Source: Candidatus Hermodarchaeota archaeon (lineage in GTDB: Archaea > Asgardarchaeota > Lokiarchaeia > Sigyniarchaeales > SOKP01). Taken from it: 22,211 bases of DNA. Shown here piece after piece: positions 2 to 9,931 of the stretch (position 1 is its first letter; every line of letters starts with the position of its first letter). A program made the translations under genes and the position numbers. Where the stretch lies: contig JBHLLP010000054.1 of the NCBI GenBank assembly GCA_048885525.1, forward strand, positions 1 to 22,211, written 5' to 3'. The notes under the pieces were generated by a model. It had not been told where the DNA came from. It was given only the letters and a program-made list of their open reading frames with translations, and searched no databases.

Positions 2-3000
2 GATACTGGACCTTTAAGAAGAGATTTAATCCCAATGTATATGCTTGGATGGGCTCCTGATTATATAGATCCAGAAAATTATATTACACCATTATACAGT
101 AACACATCAGCGATTTGGGTTAATACCTATGATTATGAATTAGAGCAATTAATGCTCGCAGGAGAAACAACAGTTGATATTACCACCCGAAAAGCCATTT
201 ACAACGAGATCCAACAGAAATTATTAGAAGAACTTTACTTTTTTGCTTGGATCTCAGTAGGTAAGAATTATGATGTATATCAAGATTATGTAAAGGGTTG
301 GGTTCCTAATGCTATTTATAGACTCGATTTCCACTCTGTTTATATCGATATAACAACAATATCAATGGTTCAATCATTAAATTATGGAACAATTGTAGAT
401 CCTACTGATCTAGATCCTCACCTTTCTTATGATACAGCTGGATGGAATGTGATTTCTCAAATTTGTGAGGGATTATATAAATTTAATTTCACAGATCCGG
501 CATCCTCATTAGTTCCTGTACTTGCAACTGCACTTCCGACAGTTTCCCCAGATGGATTGAATATTACTATCCCCCTTAGAACTGGTGTAAAATTTCAAGA
601 TGGTACTAATTTTAATGCCACAGCTGCTAAATGGAATTTTGATAGAGTTAATTATTTTTTAAATTATTCAGGGAACCAATATTTAACCTCCCCATTTAAT
701 GTACCCCTTCCTGCTACTAGCCAATTAACTAAAGTGTATTCTTTATTCACATATGGAGGGATACCGATTATAAATAGAACAGAAGTGATAGGACCATATA
801 TTATAAGAATTGTGCTGAATATGCCAAAAGCATCTATTATTAATTTATTAGCTTTTCCCTCTACACTTATGCAATCTCCAACTTCTGCTCAAATTCAAGG
901 GAAAGAACTTGATTATCTCACATACGCCGATGGTGATGTGTTAATTGGGACGGGGCCTTTTATTTTACAGAATTACCAAGAGGATGTTCAAGTTAAATTT
1001 ATTGGAAACCCCAATTACTGGCAAGGGGCTCCACAATTAACAAATTTGACATTTTGGACAATTGAGGATGATATTGCTTTGAATACAGCAGTATTAGCAG
1101 GTGATATTGACCTATATGATTCACCAGGAATATCCTTCTTAGACCAATTCAGAAATGATCCATACACAACTCTCTTGGAAGCCGGACCTACTGTAAATAC
1201 GAACTATATGGGATTCAATGGTTATATGGTCAATACCACCTTCAGGAAAGCAATCTCATATGCGATTAATTATTCTTATCTAATTGATGTCGTTTTGGAA
1301 GGTAGAGGTTACAGATTGAAATCTCCAATCCCCACAGGAATACCAATGTCGAATTATTCGTTCAATTACCCCATATTCGATCGTGCATATGCCCAATCAA
1401 TCATGCAATCTATCGGGTTTGGAACAAGCTTTACTACAGATGCCCAGTGGCTTGCTGTAGCCGCAGGAGGAGGATGGGGATTTGGATGGAACATCACAGT
1501 TCAAACAGAAGGTACAACTCGAAGAGACCTTGCTTTATATATTTCAGATTGTCTAAAATATTTAGGGATTGATGCCCCAGTAGTACAAGTTCCGTTCTGG
1601 AATTTAATCGAATGCATGATGGATTTGGCACCCTTCAGTAGAGAAATGATACCGATGTATATGTTAGGATGGGCTCCTGATTACTATGATCCAGAAAATT
1701 ACATAACACCGTTATTCAGCAACATCTCAGCAATTTGGGTTAATACTTATGATTATGAATTAGAGCAATTAATACTCGCGGGAGAAACAACAGTAGATAT
1801 TGCTGCTAGAGAAATAATTTACAATCAGATCCAAAAGAAGTTAGTTGAAGAACTCTATTTTCATGTTTGGATCTCGACAGGCAAGAATTATGATGTATAT
1901 CAAAATCATGTTCACGGATGGGTTCCTAATACCCATAATAGACTTGATTTTTACTCCATTTATATTGAGGAAGAGTATTGGATTCTGAATCCAATAATTA
2001 TTGATGATACAGGTGGCGGAGATTTTACTTGGGCACAAGCAGTTTCTCAATCATGGTGTAATGGTTCGGGGACATCCTCTGATCCCTATGTTATTGAAAA
2101 GATAAAAATTAATGGAAAAGATTCTGAAAGTTGTATAGATATTCGAAATTCTGATGTGCATTTTATAATAAAAAATTCTGTATTTTATAATTCTGGTGAT
2201 AGTAATTATGATGCAGGGATCAGGTTAGAGAATATTTCAAATGGAACCTTATTCAATAACAATTGTTCTAATAATAATGGTAATGGAATTGCATTAATAA
2301 ACTGTATTAACAATACAATTTCAGGAAATATAGTTTATCAAAATAATTATGCCGGTATAGTATTATCTTCATCTAATAAGAGCATTGTCTCAGGCAATAC
2401 AGTATATCTCAATAATTTACATGGTATATCCATAGAGGATAGTATTATGAATGAAATTTCTGGAAATACTGCATACAATAATAGTTATAATGGGATATTT
2501 TTAACATATTGTAATAACTCCAGAATTTTAGGAAATACTATATATAATAATTATCAAAATGGTATATACGTATGGTATAGTAATTACTCCATAATATCGG
2601 AAAATACAGCATATAATCATCCCTGGAAAGGGATAAGATTAGAGTACTCTAAAAATAACGATGTTATAGGTAATGTAGTATATGAAAGTATTGAAGACGG
2701 AATATATTTATATTATAGTGATGAAAATCAGATCTCGGGAAATAATGCCTATGATAATTTAAACGGGATATACTTATGGGTATCAAATGATAACAATCTC
2801 ATAAAAAATACTCTGTACAACAATGATGATAATGGAATAGGATTATATGACTGTGACAATACATTCATTATTGGAAATATTCTAAACATGAATGGCTTGA
2901 ACCCATATTACGCTTCATTAGGAAATAACAACTTTTTTCGGTGGAATTTAGCAGATGGTTATACTGATCCAATTGTCTTTGATGATGCTGGTGGGGGAGA

Positions 3001-4933
3001 TTTTACCTGGGTAGAAGCTAAAAATCAATTAGCTTGGTTTAGTGGTTCCGGCACTGGTATTGATCCATATATAATCGAAAATATAATAGTTAATGGTCAA
3101 AATTCTGGTAGTTGCATAGAGATAATAAACTCTAATGCATATCTTATTATTAGAAATTGCAAATTTACCAATTCTGGGAGTGGAACCTCAGATGCGGGAA
3201 TCAAATTAGTATATGTTACTGCAGCAGCAACGGAAATAATTAATGTTGACTGTTCGTATAATAATGGTTATGGAATTTATCTTACTTATTGTCAAGGTAT
3301 CAACATAAGGAACTGTATAATAAATAACAATGCAAGAGATGGTATTGCCCTATTTAACAGTAATAACAATTATATCGAATATAATGACAATACAGTTAAT
3401 TACAATAATGGAAATGGTATATTTTTAAATTCAAGTCATTATAATGAAATCAATAATAATATCATAAACTATAATTCTGTAGGGATTTATTTCAATGGAT
3501 CCAATTATAATACAATATCATTTAATGATTTACAATTTAATACCATAGAAGCAGTCGTGCTAAAGGGAGTGTGTATCGGGAATATTTTTTCAGATAATAA
3601 TCCACCTATTAGTATTGGGGGTGATGGTGATGGAGACGGCGAATTCCCACTTTGGATTATTATATTAGTTATAGTAGGTATAATCGCTTTAGTAGCTATA
3701 GGTGGTGGTGTGTTAGTTTTGAAGAAAAGATCAACTAAGCCTAGAAAAGTTGAGGAAGAAGAACTGATAGTAGGAGCAACATTAAAAGAGGAGAAGAAAC
3801 TCGAAAAAAATAGACAAAAAATTGAGGCGAAAGAAAAGAAAATCGAGAGAGATCTTCAAAAGAAAATGTCATTCGTGGATTACTTGATAAAGGAAGGTAA
3901 ATATAGGATGGCTCTTAAAAACTTAAATGAAATTCAAGAAAAAGCTCAGGCTAGTAAATTAACAGAGCTTGAAAACAGATCTAAAGAAAGAAGAAAATTA
4001 TGTGAGAAATTGTTTGAAGAAAAGATCGAACAGGAAAAACTAAAAGAGGAGGAAAGAAAAGAAGAAGTACGATTGAAAACAGAGAAAAAACTAGAGAAGG
4101 AGAGGTTAAAAGAAGAGGAAAAGAGAGAGCAAATTAAGAAGGTTCTTCGAATTAAAATATCAGATTTAGATTACTTAATCCAAGAAAACATGATAGATCT
4201 GGCCATTGAAAACTTAGTTAAGATTCAAAAAGAGGCTCAGGCTCAGGTATTAACTGATATTGTAAAAGAAATTGAGGAAAAGATAATTTCATATAAAAAA
4301 TCAAAATTAGAAATAGTGAATCGAATTAAACAGATTATTTTAAATTTAGGTGCCAAATTTACTCGTTTACAGCTCATTGATATTAGTGAGAAGAGTGGTA
4401 TTAAAGATGAAGCTCTAATTGAGAATGTAATTCAGGAAATGATAAAAAATAAAGAAATTCAAGGTGAGTATTTCTCGAGTTCTAAAGCACTTGCTATAGA
4501 AGTTGTATCTCCCGTACCAGTAGTGGAAAAAGAAGGATTATATCATGTTTTTATAAGTTATTCTACATTGGACACTGAGTATTTTCAAATATCAAAAATT
4601 GTAAGGCATTTAGAACTATATCCCGAAATAAAGAAAGTTTTATTCTGGGAAGCAGATAGTAAACAAAATATTGTAGAATTTATGGAGGAAACGCTAAAAA
4701 AAACTAATGCTTTCGTTTTATTTTGTTCTGAGAATTCTATGAAATCTGAGGCGGTAAAAGGTGAATGGCAAGCAGCATATCAAATGGTGAAAAAAGGTCT
4801 AATGAAAATGATTCCTGTATATGAAAATGAAGATCATATTCCTAGATTATTATGGCAAATGTTAAATATTAAATATACCAAGGATAATTTTGAGGAATTT
4901 ATCCAAAAACTATATGAGGAGATCTTAAGATAA
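2..4933 (+). CDS. Large single-pass membrane protein, 5'-truncated: tandem family-5 (peptide/nickel-type) solute-binding domains + two NosD/CASH-like parallel beta-helix modules + TM helix + coiled coil + winged-helix/PCI-like segment + C-terminal TIR domain
   Basis: The frame is open from base 2 (DTGPLRRDLIP precedes the M at 35), so the true start lies upstream of the window. SBP family-5 motifs: LDPH, QICEGLY, VKFQDGTNFNATAAKWNFDR, IGTGPF, FRKAISYAIN, GWAPDY-DP. Asn-rich GIxLxxSxxNxIxGN beta-helix repeats at about 1990-3600. Hydrophobic FPLWIIILVIVGIIALVAIGGGVLVL followed by KKR at about 3644-3730. TIR signature VFISYS...FVLFCSENSMKSEAVKGEW...MIPVY at 4541-4930. Confidence 0.9.
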   Translation, partial: DTGPLRRDLIPMYMLGWAPDYIDPENYITPLYSNTSAIWVNTYDYELEQLMLAGETTVDITTRKAIYNEIQQKLLEELYFFAWISVGKNYDVYQDYVKGWVPNAIYRLDFHSVYIDITTISMVQSLNYGTIVDPTDLDPHLSYDTAGWNVISQICEGLYKFNFTDPASSLVPVLATALPTVSPDGLNITIPLRTGVKFQDGTNFNATAAKWNFDRVNYFLNYSGNQYLTSPFNVPLPATSQLTKVYSLFTYGGIPIINRTEVIGPYIIRIVLNMPKASIINLLAFPSTLMQSPTSAQIQGKELDYLTYADGDVLIGTGPFILQNYQEDVQVKFIGNPNYWQGAPQLTNLTFWTIEDDIALNTAVLAGDIDLYDSPGISFLDQFRNDPYTTLLEAGPTVNTNYMGFNGYMVNTTFRKAISYAINYSYLIDVVLEGRGYRLKSPIPTGIPMSNYSFNYPIFDRAYAQSIMQSIGFGTSFTTDAQWLAVAAGGGWGFGWNITVQTEGTTRRDLALYISDCLKYLGIDAPVVQVPFWNLIECMMDLAPFSREMIPMYMLGWAPDYYDPENYITPLFSNISAIWVNTYDYELEQLILAGETTVDIAAREIIYNQIQKKLVEELYFHVWISTGKNYDVYQNHVHGWVPNTHNRLDFYSIYIEEEYWILNPIIIDDTGGGDFTWAQAVSQSWCNGSGTSSDPYVIEKIKINGKDSESCIDIRNSDVHFIIKNSVFYNSGDSNYDAGIRLENISNGTLFNNNCSNNNGNGIALINCINNTISGNIVYQNNYAGIVLSSSNKSIVSGNTVYLNNLHGISIEDSIMNEISGNTAYNNSYNGIFLTYCNNSRILGNTIYNNYQNGIYVWYSNYSIISENTAYNHPWKGIRLEYSKNNDVIGNVVYESIEDGIYLYYSDENQISGNNAYDNLNGIYLWVSNDNNLIKNTLYNNDDNGIGLYDCDNTFIIGNILNMNGLNPYYASLGNNNFFRWNLADGYTDPIVFDDAGGGDFTWVEAKNQLAWFSGSGTGIDPYIIENIIVNGQNSGSCIEIINSNAYLIIRNCKFTNSGSGTSDAGIKLVYVTAAATEIINVDCSYNNGYGIYLTYCQGINIRNCIINNNARDGIALFNSNNNYIEYNDNTVNYNNGNGIFLNSSHYNEINNNIINYNSVGIYFNGSNYNTISFNDLQFNTIEAVVLKGVCIGNIFSDNNPPISIGGDGDGDGEFPLWIIILVIVGIIALVAIGGGVLVLKKRSTKPRKVEEEELIVGATLKEEKKLEKNRQKIEAKEKKIERDLQKKMSFVDYLIKEGKYRMALKNLNEIQEKAQASKLTELENRSKERRKLCEKLFEEKIEQEKLKEEERKEEVRLKTEKKLEKERLKEEEKREQIKKVLRIKISDLDYLIQENMIDLAIENLVKIQKEAQAQVLTDIVKEIEEKIISYKKSKLEIVNRIKQIILNLGAKFTRLQLIDISEKSGIKDEALIENVIQEMIKNKEIQGEYFSSSKALAIEVVSPVPVVEKEGLYHVFISYSTLDTEYFQISKIVRHLELYPEIKKVLFWEADSKQNIVEFMEETLKKTNAFVLFCSENSMKSEAVKGEWQAAYQMVKKGLMKMIPVYENEDHIPRLLWQMLNIKYTKDNFEEFIQKLYEEILR
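35..1965 (+). repeat. Intragenic direct repeat with a 1620-nt (540-aa) period: about 35-345 repeats at about 1655-1965 (duplicated solute-binding domain C-terminus)
   Basis: atgtatatgcttggatgggctcctgattatatagatccagaaaatt at 35 versus atgtatatgttaggatgggctcctgattactatgatccagaaaatt at 1655. The protein block MYMLGWAPDY.DPENYITPL.SN.SAIWVNTYDYELEQL.LAGETTVDI occurs twice, with many differences at synonymous positions. Confidence 0.95.
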
Positions 4934-7482: not shown

Positions 7483-8815
7483 TTAAAAATCTATATCTTC
7501 TAATACAATAGTTTCTCTTCTATCAGGTCCTATCGAAACCATAGCAATATCTGTTTTAAGCAATTCTTTAATAGATTGAATATATATTTTCATTGTCTCT
7601 GGGAGAGCATCATATCCTTTTCTGGCACAATCTAACCATTCATCTCTGGTCTTTTCTTCCCAACCTTCAAATTTTTCATAAATTGGAGTACATCTTTCAA
7701 TAATTTCATGGTGGATAGGCCAACTTTCAAGTTTTTTTCCCTCTAACTCATAACCAGTACAAATGTTAATAGGACTTATTCCTTGTAATGCATCTAAAAG
7801 AGTAATGATAATTTTATCAATACCATTTATCATTATACCATATTGTATGTTGAAAAGGTCAAGCCATCCAACTCTTCGTGGTCTACCAGTTACAGTACCA
7901 TATTCATTACCTTGCTCTCTAATTTTTTCAGCGGTTTTGTTAAATAATTCTGTGGGGAATTTACCTTCGCCAACTCGAGAAGTATAAGCCTTAATTATTC
8001 CAACAATTTTGCCAATCTTTTTTGGAGGGATACCAGTTCCAGCACTAATACCTAAAGCGTTAGCATTAGAAGAAGTACCATAGGGATACATCCCAAAATC
8101 AATCGCCAATAGATTTCCTTGAGCTGCTTCAAATAAAACTTTTTTACCTTCTTCTATAGATTTATTTAGATAATAGGCAGAATCAATTACAAAAGGTTTA
8201 AGTTTTTCACCAAATTCTTTATATTCTTGATAAATTGATTCTAATGATTCATTCCAATCAGGATCATATACATTTATTAATTCCTTTTTAATTTTAAATA
8301 ACTTCTCTAATTTTGGCTTTAAAATCTCAGGATTAATCAAGTCAAAGATTCTTAAACCCCAACGAGCTGCTTTATCCGAATAGGTCGGACCAATTCCTCT
8401 TTTAGTTGTTCCAGCAGCATAATTTTCTTTTGTTTTTTCTTCTAATCCATCTAAAATACGATGAAAAGGAAAAATTACATGAGCTGTAGAGCTTAGCTTT
8501 AAATTAATTTTTTTATTTAAATTCTTGAGATTTTCAATCTCTTCAAGTAAAACTTTCGGATCAACTACACAACCGTTTGCTATTACTCCTTCTTTTTCTA
8601 AGGGAGCTCCAGAAGGCATTAATTTAAATTTATATTTTACTCCATTGGCATTTATTGTATGACCAGCATTATTTCCTCCATTATATCTGACAACTATATC
8701 TGCCTTCTGTGCTAAAAAATCAACAAATTTGCCTTTGCCTTCGTATAGGGTTAGTTTGCGAACTGCTCAACTAAACTCCCCACGAAAGGCCTATAACGGC
8801 AATCGTATTACTCAT
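7483..8815 (-). CDS. purA: Adenylosuccinate synthetase, split: exon 1 8815-8776, exon 2 8744-7483; 433 aa after removal of the 31-nt insert
   Basis: The ORF track gives only 8619-7483, but the frame stays open upstream (EGKGKFVDFLAQKADIVVRYNGGNNAGHT), and another frame starting at ATG 8815 gives MSNTIAVIGLSWG. Joining G(8776) to AC(8744-8743) yields GLSWG-D-EGKGK, the PurA P-loop. Downstream motifs GTTKRGIGPTYSDK, FEAAQG, YPYGTSS, KAYTSRVGEG, EYGTVTGRPRRVGWLD and SIGPDR are intact. Confidence 0.96.
8745..8775 (-). other. Putative 31-nt bulge-helix-bulge-type (archaeal tRNA-like) intron in purA mRNA: UUUAGUUGAGCAGUUCGCAAACUAACCCUAU
   Basis: Removal restores both the frame and the catalytic Asp codon. 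Central 4-bp helix GGGG (8781-8778) / CCCU (8750-8747); 3-nt bulges AG^U and AU^A; intron stem UUAGUU/AACUAA; exon-exon stem GCCUUUCG/CGAAGGC. Stops occur in all three frames. Confidence 0.85.
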
Positions 8816-9007: not shown

Positions 9008-9931
9008 TTGCCTGCTTTTAAGAAAACCATTCTAATTGATCTTGCTCATAATGAAATGTTAAACATAGATGAAGAAGAATTCAACGATTTTCTAAATCTC
9101 CTTAAAAGAATAGACCTCAAAATAAAAAAAAATGAAGATGGACATATTACAAAAGAAATTCTAGAGAATATTGATCTTTTAATCCTTGGTAATCCAATTG
9201 ATGATTTCTTTTCAAGTTTAGAAATTAAACAAATCGTTGATTATGTTAGGACTGGAGGTGGTTTAATATTATTGAGTGAATATGGAGCAGATTATCTTCA
9301 GAAAACTAATTTAAATGATATCGCTGGAAAATTTGGTATTTTTTTCGAGAAAAACTTAATCAAAGAGATGAACAAAACAAATCAAAACTGTACTAGTATC
9401 ATACACATTCAAGAGTTTCCAAAGCATATTATTACTAAAAGTTTGAGAGAAATGATAATTGGGGGTGCTTGTTCATTAGATTTAGGTAAAGGAGCAAAAA
9501 TTTTATTACAAACAAATGAACTTTCTGTATGGTCGGAAGTTTACAATAATACTTCTGAAGAATGGACAAAACAAGAAGAAAAACAACAAATTATTGCCGC
9601 ATATGCTGAATTTGGCCAAGGAAAAGTGGTAGCAATTGGAGATATCGATATTTTTACGTCAAATTCTAGAATAGGTATAGATTCTTTAGATAATCAAAAA
9701 TTCATACAAAATATAATCAATTGGTTAATAAATCCTGTCGAGGAATCAAAAGTAGTCTCATTTATTCTTAATCAGCTTGGTGATCTTCAATACGAAATTA
9801 GAGAAACTAACAAAGTTTTAAATAATATAATCGAAACTATCACAATTTTAGAAAAAAGAATTACATATTTAGAAAAAAAATCAAAGATATATATGGAACC
9901 ATCAGATCAAGAAGAAAGTTTTGAAACTTAA
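9008..9931 (+). CDS. GIFT-domain (GldG/IFT52-like, DUF4350-like) protein with a C-terminal coiled coil
   Basis: Pattern ILIDLAHNE...DLLILGNP...FSSLEIKQIVDYVRTGGGLILLSE...NLNDI...FGI...GKVVAIGDIDIF...DNQKFIQNIINWL. Heptad-like tail LGDLQYEIRETNKVLNNIIETITILEKRITYLEK. No signal peptide seen. TTG start. Confidence 0.75.
   Translation: MPAFKKTILIDLAHNEMLNIDEEEFNDFLNLLKRIDLKIKKNEDGHITKEILENIDLLILGNPIDDFFSSLEIKQIVDYVRTGGGLILLSEYGADYLQKTNLNDIAGKFGIFFEKNLIKEMNKTNQNCTSIIHIQEFPKHIITKSLREMIIGGACSLDLGKGAKILLQTNELSVWSEVYNNTSEEWTKQEEKQQIIAAYAEFGQGKVVAIGDIDIFTSNSRIGIDSLDNQKFIQNIINWLINPVEESKVVSFILNQLGDLQYEIRETNKVLNNIIETITILEKRITYLEKKSKIYMEPSDQEESFET

Follow-up and report, generated by a model that had tools for sequence, protein, structure and literature searches.

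TIR domains are common to bacterial, plant and animal immunity, and TIR NADases are activated by self-association. Solute-binding protein (SBP) folds act as the sensor heads of BvgS-type kinases, class C G-protein-coupled receptors (GPCRs) and atrial natriuretic peptide receptors. To our knowledge, the prokaryotic TIR sensors described so far act inside the cell. Here we describe a gene that joins both kinds of module in an archaeon of the Asgard group, the prokaryotes most closely related to eukaryotes. The contig JBHLLP010000054.1 of a Candidatus Hermodarchaeota archaeon (assembly GCA_048885525.1; contig C54 of the source genome, G000) was analysed over its whole 22,211 nt, referred to below as the window, and opens with a frame for a protein, P0001, that is most likely, by its predicted topology, a type-I single-pass surface protein of this Asgard (Promethearchaeota) archaeon. 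Two tandem peptide/solute-binding flytrap domains on a two-module β-helix stalk would lie outside the cell, with a helical spacer, a PCI-type winged helix and a TIR domain inside. P0001 belongs to a large Asgard-restricted family in which the tail of β-helix, transmembrane helix and TIR domain is kept and the outer head is exchanged.

The frame occupies positions 2-4933 of the forward strand, with 1643 open codons and a stop, and its 5' end runs off the start of the contig. An earlier reading of the letters alone (the original prediction) had described one open reading frame of more than 1640 residues with at least two family-5 SBP domains, two β-helix modules, a GDGDGDGE stretch, a single transmembrane helix followed by KKR with the C-terminus inside, a winged-helix/PCI-like segment and a terminal TIR domain, and all of these elements were recovered in our analysis (Table 1). 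The count of at least two SBP domains is right because the complete SBP_5 domain is preceded, in residues 1-116, by the C-terminal lobe of another; the complete domain has partial NCBIfam similarity to the GsiB, DppA, NikA and Opp binding proteins, in all cases below threshold. Pfam Beta_helix/NosD profiles match three stretches of P0001 (E 1e-42 and 9e-41), NCBIfam marks seven parallel β-helix repeats, and in most family members the membrane-proximal module precedes the transmembrane helix. That helix is the sole hydrophobic span of the protein, none elsewhere in the 1643 residues reaching a Kyte-Doolittle value of 1.6, and the K/R run that follows it is shared by nearly all homologs. Counts of N-glycosylation sequons (23 outside and 1 inside) were dropped as topology evidence because composition alone predicts similar counts (18.9 and 1.2).

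Beyond the membrane, residues 1250-1439 are 40-45% identical in the closest relatives. A single-sequence AlphaFold2 (AF2) model of residues 1290-1643 (pLDDT 60.8, below 50 in the TIR part) placed one long helix at residues 1301-1394, with a block pLDDT of about 90 that drops to about 70 along the helix; this model was superseded by the alignment-based one described below. The region may be a coiled coil, or equally a single ER/K-type helix together with PCI-type helical repeats. Of the original prediction only the coiled coil is unproven, in a segment that is helical and K/E-rich.

Residues 1516-1637 match Pfam TIR_2 (PF13676) with 51.7 bits (E 1e-13) in the full 1643-residue protein and 56 bits for the tail by itself, the curated cut-off being 28 bits. 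An AF2 model of the winged helix and TIR domain, built from an alignment of 122 family tails (A1), reached a pLDDT of 90.6 and has the flavodoxin-like α/β fold of TIR domains. When this model was compared with the PDB by Foldseek, almost all top matches were TIR domains (Hydra TRR-2, SPARTA TIR-APAZ, SARM1, MyD88, RPS4 and AbTir), the best target-normalised TM score being 0.78 (TRR-2), with one IL-17R/ACT1 SEFIR assembly among them; comparison with 48,161 chains by VIA-align gave Z scores for the TIR domain of 14.7 with Cat1, 14.3 with MyD88 and RPS4, 14.1 with TIR-1 and 14.0 with TRR-2. Enzyme-type and adaptor-type TIRs (MyD88, MAL and TRR-2) match it about equally. A PDB sequence search with the TIR domain alone was marginal (E 0.46-0.89) and served motif alignment, not membership. 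In that alignment the glutamate of SEAVKGEW, to which the original prediction had drawn attention, is Glu1588; it falls at the catalytic-Glu position, aligned with the αC glutamate of the TLR2 'CKYE' and Cat1 'WDE' motifs, and the position is at least 90% conserved among the 122 family members.

The winged helix forms the first 62 residues of the same model, in the order H-E-H-H-E-E and with pLDDT above 90. In structure it is matched best by the PCI winged helix of CSN3 (residues 303-364; VIA-align Z 10.2, root-mean-square deviation 1.7 over 62 residues), and BLASTP aligns it with the Pfam-PCI stretch of an LRR-PCI protein of relatives (35% over 55 residues, E 4e-4); the Pfam PCI profile itself gave no match on residues 1290-1643 at E<=0.01. 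A complex prediction for two copies of the winged helix and TIR domain scored 0.00, which speaks neither for nor against self-association. For this part of the tail, dN/dS against five relatives is 0.08-0.10, a sign of strong purifying selection; for the heads it is about 0.2, which indicates weaker (moderate) but clear constraint.

Searches limited to long proteins in NCBI, JGI, ENA and Logan assemblies retrieved 64 long homologs of the tail, all from Asgard metagenome-assembled genomes (MAGs; Promethearchaeota, Hodarchaeota or Lokiarchaeota by source naming). About 58 of the 64 have an ectodomain, a single transmembrane helix with its K/R run, a linker of 29-343 residues and a C-terminal TIR domain, together with an N-terminal hydrophobic segment or none. 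The heads borne on this tail are of at least five kinds (SBP_bac_5; Peripla_BP_6/ANF_receptor; β-helix only; FG-GAP/PQQ propellers; PKD/fn3; TPR). Related genomes had been proposed for a survey of the same architecture: it does recur there in independent assemblies, and the swaps seen are in the heads. An exhaustive HMMER search with the tail, counted in representative clusters, gave 865 at E<=1e-3 and 123 at E<=1e-30. The tail profile is found in 66 of 301 genomes of the phylum, 48 of 68 of the same family and 10 of the 21 other genomes of the genus, at 0 to at least 11 copies per genome; G000 has a single copy and no paralog, and P0001 is its sole TIR_2 match. A full-text literature search that included Asgard defence papers returned no description of an Asgard membrane TIR receptor family; in those papers only DefenseFinder categories such as 'Rst 2TM-1TM-TIR' are treated. 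The family also includes members with three or four tandem TIR domains in 480-600 residues (P0084, P0158 and P0166) and short proteins of winged helix and TIR, or of TIR only, and such multi-TIR and short members could be adaptor-like in multi-copy genomes.

As the frame is cut by the contig start, we examined what lies upstream. The window opens with 77 nt that recur without a mismatch at the very end of two other contigs, C7 and C51, each of which breaks off within an open SBP_5 gene that starts with a signal-type N-terminus. Relatives have Aminotran_3 and DAP_DH genes ahead of the receptor locus and PHO4, PhoU_div, DUF2284 and purA genes after it. The downstream set is in the window; the upstream set is on C7 (78-80% identity), where it immediately precedes the open SBP gene. 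Because the Aminotran_3 and DAP_DH genes found on C7 precede the receptor locus in relatives, C7 is likely to be the upstream piece, and its positions 113455-114955 (G000:C7:113455-114955) would supply the signal peptide and the rest of the first SBP domain. The joined C7-C54 frame is in register and stop-free, encodes 2118 residues with the start MNKYKRSILISLLL and holds exactly two complete SBP_5 domains. C51, which carries glycosylation and Ribophorin-type genes where C7 has the syntenic set, was rejected as the upstream contig; were it the upstream piece instead, the same architecture would result. On C51, a Ribophorin I homolog (G000:C51:11731-13557, L045:3732-5558; E 3.5e-16) lies among glycosyltransferase genes and adjoins stand-alone SBP genes, the locus being an Asgard eukaryote-signature glycosylation cluster.

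Head and tail of P0001 differ in their closest kin. With the closest receptors (P0002, P0003 and P0005), the winged helix is 77-82% and the TIR domain about 80% identical, the β-helices 42-58% and the SBP head only 32-37%. The head is 66-76% identical to the SBP_5 paralogs of G000 itself (domain 1 on C7, two genes on C51 and one on C17), 54-69% to five SBPs of G213, a sister genome that has no TIR, and no more than 45% to any sequence in 28 other congeners. Because the head is closer to the genome's own SBPs than to the heads of the closest receptors, the heads are recent acquisitions from a local expansion of SBPs, taken up by a tail that is older. The tandem arrangement is special to P0001, as the other SBP_5-type receptors retrieved have a single SBP_5 domain; multi-SBP open frames do occur elsewhere in the genus. 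A 2179-residue frame (G336:C11:41031-46223) has three tandem SBP_5 domains and a 1322-residue frame (G340:C68) two. The SBP_5 expansion itself (G000:C51:19691-21493 and 22196-23680, G000:C17:21802-24513 and five loci of G213) is confined to G000 and G213 among 31 genomes of the genus, and its C17 member combines an SBP_5 domain with Ig-like repeats and a C-terminal transmembrane anchor. The chromosomal site between DAP_DH and PHO4 holds a different receptor, or none, in different relatives (Table 1). In one genome with an empty site, G324, the DAP_DH frame carries one TAA.

Table 1. Features of the P0001 frame (window positions), alleles of the receptor site and genes adjoining receptors in relatives.
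Feature	Position	Strand	Basis or remark
First SBP_bac_5 domain, C-terminal lobe, aa 1-117	2..352	+	75% identical to aa 424-539 of second SBP domain
Second SBP_bac_5 domain, complete (family 5 / cluster C Venus-flytrap), aa 118-690	353..2071	+	Pfam PF00496, aa 170-574, E 6e-66
β-helix module 1, right-handed, NosD-like, aa 691-950	2072..2851	+	Pfam Beta_helix/NosD; TIGR03804 repeats
Inter-module linker, aa 951-1018	2852..3055	+	68-71% identity with closest receptors (P0002, P0003, P0005)
β-helix module 2, membrane-proximal, aa 1019-1206	3056..3619	+	Pfam; module boundaries
Acidic GDGDGDGE, just outside membrane, aa 1207-1214	3620..3643	+	
Transmembrane helix, aa 1215-1240	3644..3721	+	Kyte-Doolittle mean 3.11 over 19 aa
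Basic stop-transfer KKRSTKPRK, aa 1241-1249	3722..3748	+	Positive-inside
K/E-rich cytoplasmic helical region, two-fold helical repeat, aa 1250-1439	3749..4318	+	K 15.7%, E 16.2%
PCI-type winged helix, aa 1440-1501	4319..4504	+	AF2 model; structural match to CSN3
TIR domain, aa 1502-1643, and stop codon	4505..4933	+	Pfam TIR_2; fold matches
Glu1588 codon, catalytic-Glu position of NADase TIRs	4763..4765	+	Alignment
DAP_DH-PHO4 site	G000		Tandem-SBP_5 receptor
DAP_DH-PHO4 site	L043		Peripla_BP_6-fn3-NosD-TIR receptor (P0038)
DAP_DH-PHO4 site	L030		SBP_5 receptor (P0002), convergent LRR-PCI gene, Peripla_BP_6 receptor (P0050)
DAP_DH-PHO4 site	G129:C30 (L053:12670-14672); G324:C1 (L054:745-2675)		Empty; genes abut within 30-40 nt; same genus, no TIR
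LRR-PCI gene, 717-721 aa	L030:15443-17596; L032:13417-15582; L041:11693-13858	-	Convergent, directly downstream of SBP_5-type receptors
RelA_SpoT-TPR-SLOG gene beside receptor	G276:C53:31699-34179 (L047); G186:C694; G174:C128; G273:C15; G144:C1; G065:C47; G204:C13		G204:C13 within 3 kb

As originally stated, no ABC permease or ATPase genes follow P0001 in the window (17 kb downstream), and there are none among the upstream syntenic genes on C7. The PHO4 and PhoU neighbours were rejected as functional partners because the same genes abut DAP_DH in genomes that have no receptor. Two kinds of gene adjoin receptors in relatives. One, convergent to SBP_5-type receptors in three of them, encodes the LRR-PCI protein mentioned above. 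The other encodes a protein of about 830-870 residues (RelA_SpoT-TPR-SLOG, the SLOG part matching LSDAT_prok) that resembles alarmone synthetases in its RelA_SpoT domain; it lies beside TIR receptor genes in at least seven genomes of the same genus or family, and within the genus it tracks their presence. Among 22 genomes of the genus, eight have both the TIR receptor and the latter gene, three the receptor only (G000, G222 and G288), three the partner only (two of them fragments) and eight neither, a distribution that is a pattern and not a test because kin are not independent. Searched against G000, the RelA_SpoT-TPR-SLOG protein gave marginal matches only. The two SIR2_2 genes of G000 were considered as ThsA-like effectors and rejected, being SIR2 or SIR2-TPR proteins without SLOG, unlinked and at contig ends; the two are paralogous (G000:C82:4153-5604, L085:1177-2628; G000:C37:1-1185, L086), both cut by a contig end and at least one running into TPR, and with their weak PADLOC similarity to Argonaute-associated SIR2 proteins may be related to defence. 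Further along the window, positions 9008-9931 (+) encode a 307-residue protein that matches the IFT52 GIFT domain (E 1.4e-10) and ABC_transp_aux and is conserved at the corresponding place in L043, and the purA frame at 7483-8619 (-) starts at position 52 of the Adenylsucc_synt profile, its N-terminal part being missing from the frame (upstream to about 8790).

We consider it probable, if only just, that P0001 is an outside-in sensor whose heads bind something outside and whose TIR tail cleaves NAD+ inside. In such a mechanism the heads would either bind a small ligand, closing the flytraps, or bind a larger particle that cross-links several receptors; the packing of the receptors would change, the PCI winged helices and TIR domains would be brought together, and the TIR domain would then cleave NAD+, as TIR enzymes do on oligomerisation. 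In relatives the neighbouring RelA_SpoT-TPR-SLOG protein could read a nucleotide made by the TIR domain, and in G000, where that gene was not found, the output would be direct NAD+ consumption, leading to growth arrest, or a signal to an unrecognised protein. This proposal covers nutrient or partner sensing and defence alike, without a choice between them. Of the sensor or immune receptor originally envisaged, the layout is real and recurrent, with transporter-type heads on a signalling-type tail and with head swaps; the ligand, the NADase activity and the immune role did not gain support. A more elaborate scheme, in which an Asgard outside-in TIR pathway uses swappable heads, in P0001 a pair of copies of a peptide-binding protein of the same cell, as ligand sensors or virus-attachment decoys and a PCI-type assembly module switches on the TIR NADase, is offered tentatively and is, in our view, unlikely.

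Several points weigh against the sensor proposal. A glutamate at the catalytic position is present in more than 70% of all TIRs, Toll-like receptors included (PMC7075850), and its conservation is a weak discriminator because of this prevalence, which extends to the non-enzymatic TIRs of Toll-like receptors; Glu1588 would permit catalysis without proving it, being necessary and not sufficient. P0001 has Ala (SEAVKGEW) in place of the Trp of the common 'SxWC..E' motif. The topology was assigned from hydropathy and the positive-inside rule, without a dedicated predictor, and the C7 join at the N-terminus comes from synteny, not from reads. At E<=0.01 G000 yielded no LRR-PCI partner (LRR-only proteins were found, none of them beside P0001), no partner PCI protein was found there, and LSDAT_prok, LSDAT_euk and STALD gave no match at E<=0.01, although the LSDAT_euk and STALD negatives say little because control genomes gave no match either. 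With one TIR gene and no SLOG, STALD or LRR-PCI partner in G000 the pathway is incomplete, and no signalling route can be drawn for P0001 because the genome has no recognisable reader or adaptor. PADLOC-DB 2.0 returned 0 families at E<=0.1 for residues 1200-1643, and the window has no defence genes near P0001. The sensor function is inferred. Finally, the β-helix, FG-GAP and PKD heads of relatives would suit plain adhesins too.

That last point leads to a different account, in which P0001 is an adhesin or envelope protein and its TIR domain a non-catalytic docking scaffold, as in signalling by Toll-like and IL-1 receptors or for cytoskeleton anchoring. Not only the β-helices but also the FG-GAP/PQQ propellers, PKD and fn3 domains of relatives' heads are typical of adhesins, the PCI winged helix is an assembly module, the LRR-PCI gene is convergent to receptors in three relatives, and the TIR domain fits adaptors as well as enzymes. 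The lack in G000 of a second TIR protein or an LRR-PCI partner for homotypic docking, the conservation of the glutamate across the family and the nature of SBP heads, which are ligand binders rather than adhesins, make this account unlikely, if worth keeping in mind. Somewhat less likely again is an abortive-infection variant of the sensor proposal, in which the heads would mimic SBPs of the cell's own surface to which viruses may attach; virus bound to such decoys would cluster the receptors, the TIR domain would deplete NAD+ and the infected cell would stop growing. The decoy idea gains from the identity of the heads to SBP_5 paralogs of the same genome, of which they are recent copies, from the presence and absence, head turnover at the hotspot and varying copy number among close relatives, all typical of immune genes, and from the partner-less state of G000, since a TIR NADase can act alone. 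It loses by the negative PADLOC result, by the lack of defence neighbours in the window and by the purifying selection on the heads, which at this resolution shows nothing of an arms race; moreover, we know of no virus of these archaea that uses an SBP as its receptor.

Two more mundane explanations concern the gene's function as a transporter component and the integrity of the assembly. P0001 might be a membrane-anchored SBP that still serves an ABC importer whose genes lie elsewhere, the TIR tail being a regulatory addition or irrelevant. Archaeal SBPs are commonly membrane-anchored, as the C17 paralog exemplifies, and the two stand-alone SBP copies on C51 have no upstream permease gene either, the contig ending before the downstream side becomes visible. 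A stalk of about 500 residues and tandem heads would, however, place the binding sites far from a permease, the 400-residue cytoplasmic tail is under strong purifying selection, the same tail bears non-SBP heads in relatives, and neither flank has permease or ATPase genes; we therefore regard this explanation as very improbable. Still less credible is an assembly chimera, with an SBP gene and an unrelated TIR gene wrongly placed on one contig. The window does start in a repeat, the 77-mer in which C7 and C51 end, and G000 is a MAG of 3.58 Mb in 87 contigs (estimated 99.3% complete, 3.4% contamination). We score a chimera low because the same domain order recurs in independent assemblies: SBP_5, β-helix, transmembrane helix and TIR domain stand in frame in seven proteins (P0002, P0003, P0005, P0014, P0027, P0029 and P0044), of which P0002 is found in two separate assemblies, and in four more (P0008, P0009, P0012 and P0015) the same tail bears an SBP_5 head, whether or not a β-helix is present. 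The junction between the two SBP domains, moreover, runs in frame from a domain end to the start of a mature domain, and is not a join at homologous positions, and the flanks are syntenic with relatives.

A family of surface TIR receptors would place the principle of sensing outside and signalling through TIR inside beyond animals, by descent or by convergence, and the full Asgard pathway, if true, would be the first counterpart, among prokaryotes, of Toll-type immunity or signalling at the cell surface. Within this family P0001 is distinguished by its tandem SBP head, its position at a hotspot with empty and alternative alleles, the recent recruitment of its heads and its partner-less single copy. 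It is a useful minimal case, the only TIR gene found in its genome and without partners, whose tail lends itself to a stand-alone test of Glu-dependent NAD+ cleavage, and its locus shows head exchange together with gain and loss of whole receptors at one fixed chromosomal site.

Set beside described systems, P0001 shares parts with several. With family-5 ABC-type SBPs it has the SBP_bac_5 fold and profile in common; those work as free or lipid-anchored proteins encoded along with permease and ATPase genes, and it differs from them in its fusion to stalk, transmembrane helix and TIR domain with no permease or ATPase genes beside it. With the PCI subunits of the COP9 signalosome, the proteasome lid and eIF3 it shares the winged helix that matches CSN3 and the helical repeats before it; unlike them, it has no Pfam PCI match of its own and is a membrane receptor rather than part of a soluble multi-subunit complex. 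A parallel in overall plan is offered by BvgS/EvgS histidine kinases, natriuretic-peptide receptor cyclases and class C GPCRs, in which a membrane-spanning fusion links a flytrap (a tandem in BvgS) to a cytoplasmic output domain, and the Peripla_BP_6/ANF_receptor heads of relatives recall the natriuretic-peptide receptor guanylate cyclases in particular. Here, however, the output is a TIR domain in place of a kinase, a cyclase or a seven-transmembrane domain, a β-helix stalk stands between head and membrane, and the heads are of family 5 (cluster C) and far exceed in size the family 3 domains of BvgS.

The defence TIRs (Thoeris ThsB, SPARTA TIR-APAZ, Cat1, AbTir and TIR-STING) resemble P0001 in the TIR_2 domain, in fold (Z 11-14.7) and in the conserved glutamate at the catalytic position. 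Their sensors are cytoplasmic, responding to phage components, nucleic acids or cyclic nucleotides, whereas the TIR domain of P0001 is carried by an extracellular receptor with no PADLOC match. The likeness to Thoeris exists at family level only: a SLOG-domain gene adjoins receptor genes in relatives, as Thoeris effector genes do, whilst no effector gene with a SLOG, SIR2-SLOG or Macro reader was found recognisably linked in G000.

Animal Toll-like and IL-1 receptors share the layout, being type-I single-pass proteins with a large ectodomain outside, a C-terminal TIR domain inside and varied heads on one kind of tail, and the TIR fold is like those of TRR-2, TLR2, MyD88 and the IL-1R family (TM score 0.78, Z 13.6-14.3). 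P0001 departs from them in an ectodomain of two SBP_bac_5 and two Beta_helix/NosD modules in place of LRR or Ig domains, in the 260-residue helical spacer and PCI winged helix between membrane and TIR domain, and in the absence of a TIR adaptor from G000, where a 99.3%-complete genome holds no other TIR_2 match. The original wording, analogous to Toll-like receptors and not necessarily homologous, is in keeping with the absence of an LRR head, with this linker and with a TIR domain that matches enzyme and adaptor types alike. Convergence with Toll-like receptors is the simpler reading, because the TIR domain is no closer to theirs than to the enzyme TIRs of bacteria and plants.

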